From positions 99,464-163,463 of the forward strand of contig JBAYJK010000001.1 of assembly GCA_041665145.1 (NCBI GenBank): 64,000 nucleotides of DNA. The letters are read 5' to 3'. Below, piece after piece: positions 49,792 through 51,253 of this stretch; positions within the stretch are counted from its first letter, which is position 1; each line of letters opens with the position of its first letter. The notes beneath the pieces were generated by a model. The model searched no databases and was not told where the DNA came from. It saw only the letters and a program-made list of their open reading frames with translations. The translations under genes and the position numbers were made by a program. Source of the stretch: Patescibacteria group bacterium (GTDB taxonomy: Bacteria > Patescibacteriota > Microgenomatia > UBA1406).

Positions 49792-50229
49792 TCAATTATT
49801 GTGGTCTGAAGTGAGAATGTGTGTCGTGGAAAAAGGTTTAATTAGTGGCGTGACAACCGCCAGCTCCGCACCGATGTCCGCAGCCATCTGTCGTTTATTG
49901 TCCTCCTGAGGGTCCTGCTCGGTAATTGCAATAACCGTCGGATGAACGGTTTGAACGAGCTTTTTATACTCCTCCGTTGTGGCAAAAAAGGGAAGAGGTA
50001 TTACTTTATCAACGTATCGCAGAGCCTCGAGAATTATTTTGCGTTCGGCTTGCGTATGAACAGGAATTCGGTGTTTGTGTGTTTTAATAAATTCGTCGCT
50101 TTCGAGTGCTACGATCAGGAAGTTTCCGCGTGCTTTTGCAGCTTTGAGAAACTGAATGTGGCCATAATGCAAGACGTCGAAGCAACCCCCGACAAGTACT
50201 ACTTGTTGTGCCGAATTTTCGTCAGACAT
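49792..50229 (-). CDS. Cytidylyltransferase-like nucleotidyltransferase (TagD / RfaE-domain-II family)
   Basis: GGCFDVLHYGHIQFLKAAK (HxGH motif); 145 aa. Confidence 0.7.
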   Translation of the reverse strand: MSDENSAQQVVLVGGCFDVLHYGHIQFLKAAKARGNFLIVALESDEFIKTHKHRIPVHTQAERKIILEALRYVDKVIPLPFFATTEEYKKLVQTVHPTVIAITEQDPQEDNKRQMAADIGAELAVVTPLIKPFSTTHILTSDHNN

Positions 50230-51154
50230 TTATTTTGTCTTTTAACAGATACTGTGGACGATTCTGAACCTCCCTATAAATTTTTCCGGTGTACTCACCG
50301 ATAATACCTATTGTGACGAGCTGTGCCCCTCCGATAAACAGAACGGCAACAAATAATGCGGTCCAACCGGTCACCCAGTATTGGTGCGGCATGAAAAAAC
50401 GGATGAATAATGCATACAGAATACCGGTAAAACCCAGCAGCGAAGCAAGAAACCCGGTGTAGGTGGCAAGTCTCAGAGGTTTGACGGAAAACGATACAAT
50501 CCCGTCCAATGCGAAATTGATCATTTTAGAGAGCGTGTAATGGGTAGTTCCCGCGAATCTTTTATCTCTATTAAATTCCACAACTTCCTCACGAAAACCG
50601 CCCCACGCGGCGAGGCCTCTATAAAATTTATTGTGTTCCGGCAAATTCTTCAGAAAATCATTCACTTTTTTATCCTGTAATCGATAATCACCCACATCCG
50701 TGGGGATGGGAATGTCCGACAGAAAATTAAGACAACGGTAAAAAATAAATGCTGTGACGCGCTTGAAAATAGAGTCGTCACGTTTCTTCCGTTTGGCATA
50801 GACTAAATCAGCACCTTCCTGCCATTTCTTTATCAGTTCCGGTATTATCTCAGGCGGATCTTGCAGGTCTGCATCTATTGTTACGGTACAATCACCGGTT
50901 GCGTGCGAATATCCGCATGACAAAGCCACCTGATGGCCGAAATTGCGCGTAAACGAAAGGACTTTAATCTGTTTATTTTTGCCTGCCTCCTTTTTGAGGA
51001 GAGCGTAAGTGTTGTCGGTTGATCCGTCATCAATGGTAATTATCTCGTATTGATAGCGGGACAATAGGGGAATGAGTCGTTTGAAAAGCGCTTCAATATT
51101 GTGTTCTTCATTGTGAATCGGTATGACAACTGAAAGAAGGAAGTTGGTTTTCAT
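50222..51154 (-). CDS. Polyprenyl-phosphate glycosyltransferase, GtrB/ArnC-like GT2 with C-terminal TM pair
   Basis: LSVVIPIHNEEHNIE, ITIDDGSTDNT, TIDADLQDPPE, and two C-terminal TM helices; a paralog of the 21677 gene. Confidence 0.8.
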   Translation of the reverse strand: MKTNFLLSVVIPIHNEEHNIEALFKRLIPLLSRYQYEIITIDDGSTDNTYALLKKEAGKNKQIKVLSFTRNFGHQVALSCGYSHATGDCTVTIDADLQDPPEIIPELIKKWQEGADLVYAKRKKRDDSIFKRVTAFIFYRCLNFLSDIPIPTDVGDYRLQDKKVNDFLKNLPEHNKFYRGLAAWGGFREEVVEFNRDKRFAGTTHYTLSKMINFALDGIVSFSVKPLRLATYTGFLASLLGFTGILYALFIRFFMPHQYWVTGWTALFVAVLFIGGAQLVTIGIIGEYTGKIYREVQNRPQYLLKDKINV

Positions 51155-51160
51155 GCTTGT

Positions 51161-51229
51161 GTTGCGGGGCTGGGAGTCGGACCCAGCCTAAAAGGTTATG
51201 AGCCTTTTGTGCACCGTACACTACCCCGC
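51161..51229 (-). tRNA. Atypical initiator-like tRNA-Met (anticodon CAU), 69 nt
   Basis: Manual fold: acceptor TGCGGGG/CCCCGCA plus A (matching the E. coli tRNA-fMet acceptor strand apart from a U1-A72 pair in place of the C1xA72 mismatch; a 3' A also follows CCCCGCA in both), U8, anticodon stem AAAGG/CCTTT with loop CTCATAA (U33, CAU, A37), T-arm CTGGG-TCCGACT-CCCAG. Oddities are a 5-nt D-loop and C55 instead of U55. An extended -10 lies upstream. Confidence 0.5.
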
Positions 51230-51244
51230 ACTAATTTACGAGAT

Positions 51245-51253
51245 AGTATAACA
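51245..51253 (-). promoter_or_regulatory. Extended -10 (TGtTATACT) promoter for the tRNA-Met-like gene
   Basis: The reverse complement reads TGTTATACT, ending 15 nt upstream of the tRNA 5' end. Confidence 0.4.

Follow-up and report, generated by a model that had tools for sequence, protein, structure and literature searches.

In animal mitochondria the D- and T-loops of tRNAs are shrunken, the contact between G18 and pseudouridine 55 is weakened or lost, and the tRNA genes abut coding sequences, their excision making leaderless mRNA ends. For bacterial initiator tRNAs, Shetty et al. (NAR 2017, PMC5389676) describe the 'au/GC/GC' anticodon stem, with A29-U41, as a natural variant occurring in alpha-proteobacteria and some mycoplasmas, and the introduction of that paper states that initiators need a mismatch or a weak pair at position 1:72, together with G2-C71 and C3-G70 for the formyltransferase. 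The gene described here, an initiator-type tRNA-Met(CAU) gene on the minus strand of the 64-kb stretch of DNA presented above (the window, meaning the whole stretch that was analysed), combines the 'au/GC/GC' stem with a D-loop and a variable loop that are both miniaturised and with a cytosine at position 55. We think it likely that in a Roizmanbacteria-like bacterium of the Patescibacteria this gene encodes a functional initiator of the tRNAfMet type, which is a lineage-specific miniaturised form of the bacterial initiator. A literature search found no description of this reduced initiator form in the Patescibacteria or candidate phyla radiation (CPR).

The tRNA gene and its departures from the canonical form

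The gene occupies positions 51162-51230 of the minus strand and has the sequence UGCGGGGUAGUGUACGGUGCACAAAAGGCUCAUAACCUUUUAGGCUGGGUCCGACUCCCAGCCCCGCAA, 69 nt corresponding to tRNA positions 1-73, as defined by the sequence and the Infernal alignment; U1 falls on 51230, CAU of the anticodon on 51200-51198 and the discriminator A73 on 51162. Its parts are the following.

51162-51230, minus strand: reduced initiator-type tRNA-Met(CAU), supported by ARAGORN, Infernal RF00005, covariation and syntenic orthologues
51209-51221, minus strand: D-arm with the stem GUGU/GCAC and the 5-nt loop ACGGU (Infernal alignment)
51191-51207, minus strand: anticodon arm AAAGG-CUCAUAA-CCUUU, an 'au/GC/GC' initiator variant (Infernal alignment)
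51175-51181, minus strand: T-loop UCCGACU, with C55 at 51180 (sequence and Infernal alignment)

The original prediction had put a tRNA-Met(CAU) cloverleaf at 51161-51229, naming no strand. There is indeed a tRNA gene in this place, but the range was off by one nucleotide and the strand is the minus strand. Two of the programs proposed for checking the cloverleaf bear it out: ARAGORN calls a tRNA-Met(cat) at 51161-51230, and Infernal, when given a stretch of 401 nt, aligns 51162-51230 to 71 of the 71 positions of the RF00005 model with 49.2 bits (E=1e-9), well above the gathering score of 29 bits. Rfam searches with fast filters at the gathering threshold did not report the gene in the 64-kb window or in a 20-kb stretch. 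Because the search of the 401-nt stretch scores 49.2 bits, the omission is a loss at the fast filters and not the result of a low model score, and it does not count as evidence against a tRNA. A pattern with 31 specified bases had no match in 100 shuffles of the window, thus the tRNA-Met(CAU) element is far beyond chance.

The acceptor pairs 2-7/66-71 are GCGGGG/CCCCGC, including G2-C71 and C3-G70, and are identical to those of E. coli tRNAfMet. The anticodon loop is CUCAUAA, and the two identity elements of methionyl-tRNA synthetase (MetRS), CAU and A73, are both present; CCA is not encoded, the bases after A73 being CAC. The peculiarities that the original prediction had listed were all found in the sequence: the length of 69 nt, a U1-A72 pair, a D-loop of 5 nt, two G-C pairs in the anticodon stem (A29-U41, G30-C40, G31-C39) where three are expected, and a T-arm CUGGG-UCCGACU-CCCAG with C55 in place of the canonical U55. 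The variable loop has 4 nt. The D-stem of 4 bp includes U11-A24 and U13-G22, and the loop ACGGU consists of A14, one nucleotide, G18, G19 and one nucleotide, leaving a single nucleotide on either side of GG, whereas canonical D-loops are 7-11 nt long and contain A14, G18, G19 and A21. In the minimum free energy fold of the single sequence A14 and U21 form an additional D-stem pair; this pair was rejected as unconserved, relatives carrying C there.

Orthologues, covariation and position 55

The gene next to the tRNA encodes a glycosyltransferase of family 2 (GT2). The reduced tRNA was found directly upstream of the orthologue of this gene in at least eight other lineages, which are listed here under our locus numbers (L) with the identity of their GT2 protein to that of the window.

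L145 (ENA ERZ28564302): GT2 protein 87% identical; tRNA identical, C55 included
L144 (Logan): GT2 protein 85%; U55, A53:U61
L149 (GCA_900174595.1): GT2 protein 71%; U55, A6:U67
L146-148 (GCA_002305675.1): GT2 protein 70%; U55, encoded CCA
L155 (JGI): GT2 protein 67%; U55
L150/151 (protein labelled Roizmanbacteria CG10_..._45_7): GT2 protein 63%; C1xA72 mismatch, A6:U67, C55
L152 (GCA_024654535.1, Roizmanbacteria): GT2 protein 63%; U55
L130 (from a narrower metagenome scan): same 5-nt D-loop arm and anticodon stem, U55

The 5-nt D-loop is kept in all eight. The tRNAs are identical to that of the window at 61-69 of 69 nt (88-100%), compared with 68-75% for the DNA of the adjacent GT2 genes, and in L145 the tRNA is unchanged although the GT2 DNA is 75% identical. 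Identity values for the upstream regions were disregarded, being inflated by the end-gap-free global alignment. Among the 12 distinct sequences of this narrow clade 98.8% of the pair cells are standard pairs, and no stem pair is broken except, as expected, 1:72. Seven of the 21 pairs have changed on both sides, e.g. G6-C67 to A6-U67 and G53-C61 to A53-U61. The covariation score was reached by none of 500 shuffles, sliding the partners lowers pairing to 31-55%, and RNAalifold recovers the cloverleaf when no structure is supplied. In a wider set of 23 reduced initiator-type tRNAs from Patescibacteria 96.3% of the cells are paired (covariation score 0.445 vs 0.108 for shuffles), and A29-U41/G30-C40/G31-C39 is invariant in 23 of 23, only 31:39 having been fixed by the search pattern. 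The comparative alignment that the original prediction had recommended thus finds the fold conserved in relatives, and these comparisons argue that the tRNA gene is under purifying selection, with compensatory changes in its stems.

Two of the loci have unusual features. In L145 (211-440) about 230 nt separate the tRNA from GT2, and the GT2 gene call gives a shorter product of 259 aa; there may be an insertion or a rearranged 5' end here. In L150 a tRNA at 1-64 of the minus strand, at the edge of a Roizmanbacteria CG10-type contig, is incomplete at its 3' end and scores 39.5 bits.

C55 is present in the window, in L145 and in L150/151 (Roizmanbacteria CG10), U55 in L144, L146-149, L152, L155 and L130. 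C55 is not an assembly error: it occurs in independent assemblies, of organisms that share 87% (L145) and 63% (L150/151) GT2 protein identity with the window. As U55 occurs in L144 (85%) and in all lineages between L145 and L150/151, position 55 must have changed at least twice. It had been proposed that a G18-C55 pair could compensate for the loss of U55. We found no support for this: the D-loops are the same (ACGGU or ACGGC) in the C55 and the U55 versions, and nothing there covaries with position 55. Outside this group pseudouridine 55 is 'nearly universally conserved' (PMC1616971). In a local ARAGORN run 10 of the 411 tRNAs in the fetched loci had C55 and 392 had U55, all C55 cases being in loci from, or labelled as, Patescibacteria, and the U55/pseudouridine-55 rule seems to be relaxed in this group in general. 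Three loci with a Paceibacterota or Nomurabacteria label (L019 4052-4124, L043 3342-3414, L106 4401-4473) have a tRNA-Thr(GGU) with C55, and an elongator-like tRNA-Met (L094 1760-1831) has it as well. The closest U55 relative of the window tRNA, L144 31-99, has the T-loop UUCAACU, and A53:U61 replaces the near-invariant G53:C61, another sign of relaxed constraint on the T-arm in this clade. When both forms were submitted to a filtered Rfam run, the U55 orthologues were detected (50-55 bits) and the C55 form of L150 (4651-4720) was missed.

A scan of GTDB genomes with a degenerate pattern gave at least 120 loci, most of which held ordinary initiators whose D-loop is 7 nt long, and it provides no measure of the frequency of the 5-nt form. 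Among the matches listed, the D-loop is 7 nt and the variable loop 5 nt long in ordinary initiators from Firmicutes, Chloroflexota and other groups, which also have three G-C pairs; a 71-nt form is found in loci labelled Paceibacterota, Nomurabacteria and, in some cases, Saccharibacteria. In the 71-nt form A72 faces A1 or C1, the D-loop has 7 nt and the variable loop 4 nt, the anticodon stem contains A29-U41 and the T-loop reads UUCGAUU. A sister clade of the window tRNA, seen in a metagenome scan (L124, L125, L127, L131, L135, L138), has the D-stem GUGU/GCAC and a 6-nt D-loop. The D-loop appears in graded reduction: it has 7 nt in the Paceibacteria type (with A11:U24), 6 nt in the sister clade and 5 nt in the window clade (with U11:A24), and all three groups (e.g. 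L055, L018, L110 and L014; L124/L125; the window) share A29-U41 and the 4-nt variable loop. In several of these Patescibacteria lineages a release-factor gene lies near the initiator.

Probable initiator identity and the alternatives

The pairs 2-7/66-71, A72 and A73 are shared with the classical initiators of Firmicutes, Chloroflexota and other groups, as listed by a pattern that was itself built on these features. Most of the clade has U-A at 1:72, with C.A in L150 and A.A in L124 and L131, and this end would thus count as mismatched or weak, as initiators require; the formyltransferase of E. coli, Fmt, tolerates weak pairs at 1:72. In the six sister-clade loci a normal-shaped elongator tRNA-Met follows the reduced tRNA within 5-380 nt, as often does tRNA-Trp, and in L155 an elongator tRNA-Met lies about 8 kb from the reduced tRNA; ARAGORN found none within the 64-kb window. 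A tRNA-Ile(UAU) was seen near the Met pair in three sister-clade loci (L124 4373-4446, L127 2000-2072, L131 1968-2040), which suggests that AUA is read there without a lysidine-modified CAU tRNA. The presence of two CAU tRNAs, one with the initiator stem and one elongator-like, together with tRNA-Ile(UAU) in these loci points to an initiator role for the reduced molecule. Among the tRNAs seen, those for Lys, Pro, Trp, elongator Met and Ile have ordinary D- and T-loops, and only the initiator type is reduced. The original prediction had left the choice between a lineage-specific reduced initiator, a pseudogene and a tRNA-like regulatory element; synteny, selection, the acceptor-stem signature and the separate elongator tRNA-Met of the relatives support the first of these.

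A number of observations weigh against this interpretation. The U1-A72 pair is of Watson-Crick type, where classical initiators have a mismatch, and the anticodon stem has two G-C pairs instead of three. Bacterial initiators have A11:U24 and elongators Y11:R24, and U11:A24 is found throughout the window clade. C55 costs a near-universal tertiary contact and a modification site. The single sequence folds into a cloverleaf, but with a modest z of -1.79. Pfam annotation of most open reading frames (ORFs) of the window showed no fmt, def, truB or infC gene. The tRNA scan of the source genome spans the 64-kb window, and a second, canonical initiator could be encoded in the remaining approximately 0.9 Mb. 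Finally, the co-transcription with GT2 discussed below is deduced from spacing.

The closed U1-A72 pair, which would permit binding of EF-Tu, the elongator-type U11:A24 and the two anticodon-stem G-C pairs would fit an elongator tRNA-Met, or a tRNA serving in both initiation and elongation as in animal mitochondria. We consider this improbable, since the acceptor stem is, from 2-7/66-71, that of classical initiators, relatives carry C1.A72 (L150) or A1.A72 (L124, L131) on an otherwise same molecule, and no dual role is required where relatives encode an ordinary-shaped elongator tRNA-Met beside or near the reduced tRNA.

Somewhat less probable still is a decaying or redundant pseudogene in a genome that has its canonical initiator elsewhere. 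The non-canonical C55, the short D-loop and the two G-C pairs could be signs of decay, the gene is omitted by the filtered Rfam search, and the tRNA scan covers the 64 kb of the window. The pseudogene option is contradicted by the syntenic conservation and the compensatory changes: the same locus is found in at least eight lineages with stem pairs intact but for 1:72, another organism (L145) has an identical tRNA next to a GT2 gene with 75% DNA identity, and the -10 box described below is conserved. Furthermore, no canonical initiator was found in about 150 kb of related loci, where elongator tRNA-Met genes did occur.

The third alternative, a tRNA-like cis element which controls or processes the mRNA of the GT2 operon and is not used in translation, concerns the junction between the two genes.

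51245-51253, minus strand: TG-extended -10 box TGT-TATACT, from the promoter scan, ending 14 nt upstream of U1
51155-51161, minus strand: spacer CACAAGC of 7 nt, from A73 to the GT2 start codon (sequence)
50222-51154, minus strand: gene for a GT2-family (GtrB/DPM1-like) polyprenyl-phosphate glycosyltransferase (Pfam PF00535, E=2e-34)

The extended -10 promoter of the original prediction is present; it is accompanied by a weak -35-like TCGATA at 51272-51267, and all orthologues are preceded by a -10 box with this same spacing. The 7-nt spacer is too short to hold a promoter, a terminator or a Shine-Dalgarno (SD) site, and the scan of the region detected neither a promoter nor a terminator between the tRNA and GT2. 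The placement of the GT2 start codon agrees with the conserved N-terminus of the orthologues. The distance from the discriminator to the GT2 start is 6-12 nt in the window, L144, L149, L150, L152 and L155, and longer in L146 (38 nt, with a separate -10 box for GT2 that lies 7 nt ahead of the ATG), L130 (35 nt) and L145 (230 nt). The tight spacing suggests a conserved tRNA-mRNA co-transcript junction, and judging from the 7-nt distance and the lack of an own GT2 promoter the tRNA and the GT2 operon are probably co-transcribed. The window and Roizmanbacteria CG10 have almost identical spacers, ACAAGC(T), despite only 63% identity of the GT2 proteins.

The start codon 7 nt after the tRNA, the lack of an own promoter or SD site and the tight spacing in five of the relatives are what a cis element would predict. 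A role of this kind in place of a translational one is nevertheless very improbable. All identity features of a tRNA are kept (CAU loop, A73, G18G19/C56, stems of 7/4/5/5 bp) and the element scores as a complete tRNA; the sister clade has the same tRNA in clusters with other tRNAs (Met, Trp) and not upstream of GT2; and the long spacers of L146, L130 and L145, with the own -10 box of L146, make processing an add-on at most. The regulatory element of the original prediction does not stand as the primary function; as a secondary one, through co-transcription and a 3' processing step that makes the mRNA 5' end, it is possible. A tRNA-Ile2, whose CAU anticodon would be modified to lysidine for reading AUA, can practically be dismissed: the anticodon is compatible with it and ARAGORN cannot separate Met from Ile2, but sister-clade loci have tRNA-Ile(UAU) for AUA, and G4-C69 and G5-C68 in the acceptor are of the initiator type and not of the Ile2 type of E. 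coli ileX.

Gene neighbourhood, proposed pathway and comparison with known systems

The GT2 protein matches an NCBI protein of a 'Patescibacteria group bacterium', and relatives with 63-64% identity are named Candidatus Roizmanbacteria; by these matches the host is a Roizmanbacteria-like member of the Patescibacteria (CPR). The locus is also present on a contig of 918,908 bp in JGI metagenome 3300037810, an accession cited by a landfill virome study, and in a Logan assembly. The G+C content is about 42%, and all three stop codons are in use. The same-strand neighbours of the tRNA are housekeeping and envelope genes: upstream are genes for a cyclophilin, an HhH-GPD glycosylase and a beta-lactamase-family protein, downstream are GT2, a cytidylyltransferase, LytR_C, a release factor, FtsE/FtsX, an M23 peptidase and a rhamnose/glycosylation cluster. 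GT2 stands at the head of a conserved block (GT2, cytidylyltransferase, LytR_C, release factor, FtsE/FtsX and others), whose synteny extends to L130 and L144-L155. We also considered a mobile-element or phage attachment site, and rejected this idea: the housekeeping and envelope surroundings are syntenic across lineages, and no integrase was found by Pfam in most of the window ORFs. The same annotation found no rnpA, rnz or cca gene in the window. Between approximately 15000 and 42000 there is a large envelope glycosylation region with several GT2 and GT1 genes, YfhO-like and PMT_2-like membrane proteins, a Wzx/MurJ-like flippase, a GT2 fused to a GtrA/DPMS-type transmembrane domain, a UDP-glucose dehydrogenase and Rml-type rhamnose-pathway-like genes; its content looks ordinary for such a region.

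An SD-like motif precedes only one of the 54 long ORFs of the window, and 11 of the 54 have a -10-like hexamer whose end lies 6-7 nt ahead of the start codon, where about 0.4 would be expected; both counts are rough, the first in-frame start having been taken as the start of each ORF. Leaderless mRNAs appear to be widespread in this organism. Starts that show the pattern include 3025, 5444, 27505, 41833(-), 42741(-), 52836(-) and 54969(-).

The following pathway would account for these features. The TG-extended -10 promoter of the tRNA gene would drive its transcription, giving a leader of about 7 nt, RNase P would trim the 5' end, the 3' cut would fall after A73, and CCA would be added enzymatically. 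MetRS would charge the tRNA through the CAU anticodon and A73, and the molecule would be used for initiation in the P site, its tRNAfMet-like 2-7/66-71 stem with a weak or mismatched 1:72 pair being the type of end that the formyltransferase accepts. Aminoacylation, formylation and the initiator role we infer from these sequence features. In this clade the D-loop would have shrunk to 5 nt and the variable loop to 4 nt, the 11:24 pair would have been flipped to U:A, and the anticodon stem is of the A29-U41 'au/GC/GC' type. Because U and C are both tolerated at position 55, the G18-pseudouridine-55 contact of the elbow is evidently dispensable here. Processing of the tRNA 3' end in a co-transcript would yield a nearly leaderless GT2 mRNA, which would fit a genome with hardly any SD sites and with many leaderless-type promoters.

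A more far-reaching proposal can be made only tentatively, as we regard it as rather doubtful. In Roizmanbacteria-like Patescibacteria the initiator tRNA, and no other tRNA, may have had its elbow rebuilt, the 5-nt D-loop making the G18-pseudouridine-55 contact unnecessary and U55 and C55 interchangeable, together with a translation that lacks SD sites and is largely leaderless, and the tRNA gene may also serve as a punctuation mark, its 3' processing yielding the near-leaderless 5' end of a conserved envelope/cell-division operon. If true, this would be a bacterial parallel to the reduction and punctuation of mitochondrial tRNAs, and the minimal bacterial initiator tRNA would be redefined.

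Selection would be able to maintain a bacterial initiator with a 5-nt D-loop, U1-A72, Y11:R24, two G-C pairs and an 'invariant' position 55 that can be U or C. The pairs of U55 and C55 tRNAs that differ by 1-3 nt are natural test cases for the needs of MetRS, the formyltransferase, IF3, RNase P and the ribosome. Since C55 forms pass the full covariance model yet drop out at the Rfam fast filters, filter-based RNA annotation can report such CPR genomes as having no initiator tRNA. The tight junction between a tRNA and an ORF in a genome poor in SD sites suggests, for bacteria, a testable link between the processing of tRNAs and the making of leaderless mRNAs.

It is instructive to compare this tRNA with the systems known so far. 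The likeness to animal mitochondrial tRNAs and their punctuation is one of analogy: the gene lies in the chromosome of a free-living or episymbiotic bacterium, among otherwise canonical tRNAs (Lys, Pro, elongator Met), with only the initiator reduced, and processing of a tRNA-mRNA co-transcript is, unlike mitochondrial punctuation, something we infer. With classical tRNAfMet (e.g. E. coli metZWV/metY) it shares the CUCAUAA loop, G2-C71, C3-G70, G4-C69 through G7-C66, A72 and A73, and it has kept G30-C40, G31-C39, G18G19, C56 and A58. It differs from the E. coli molecule in having 69 instead of 74 nt before CCA, a D-loop of 5 instead of 9 nt, a variable loop of 4 instead of 5 nt, U1-A72 in place of C1xA72, U11:A24 in place of A11:U24, A29-U41 in place of G29-C41, and C55 in place of U or pseudouridine 55. 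The 'au/GC/GC' initiators of Shetty et al. (PMC5389676) are alike in that the first G-C pair is replaced by A-U and three consecutive purine:pyrimidine pairs are retained, but they are of normal size with normal D- and T-loops, whereas here the D-loop and the variable loop are miniaturised and position 55 is variable. The 71-nt Patescibacteria initiators share A29-U41/G30-C40/G31-C39, the 4-nt variable loop and the acceptor stem, and often lie near a release-factor gene; they have a 7-nt D-loop, A11:U24, U55 (UUCGAUU) and, like L150 of the window clade, a mismatch at 1:72, and it is by the D-stem GUGU/GCAC, the 5-nt D-loop and the U or C at position 55 that the window clade is set apart from them.

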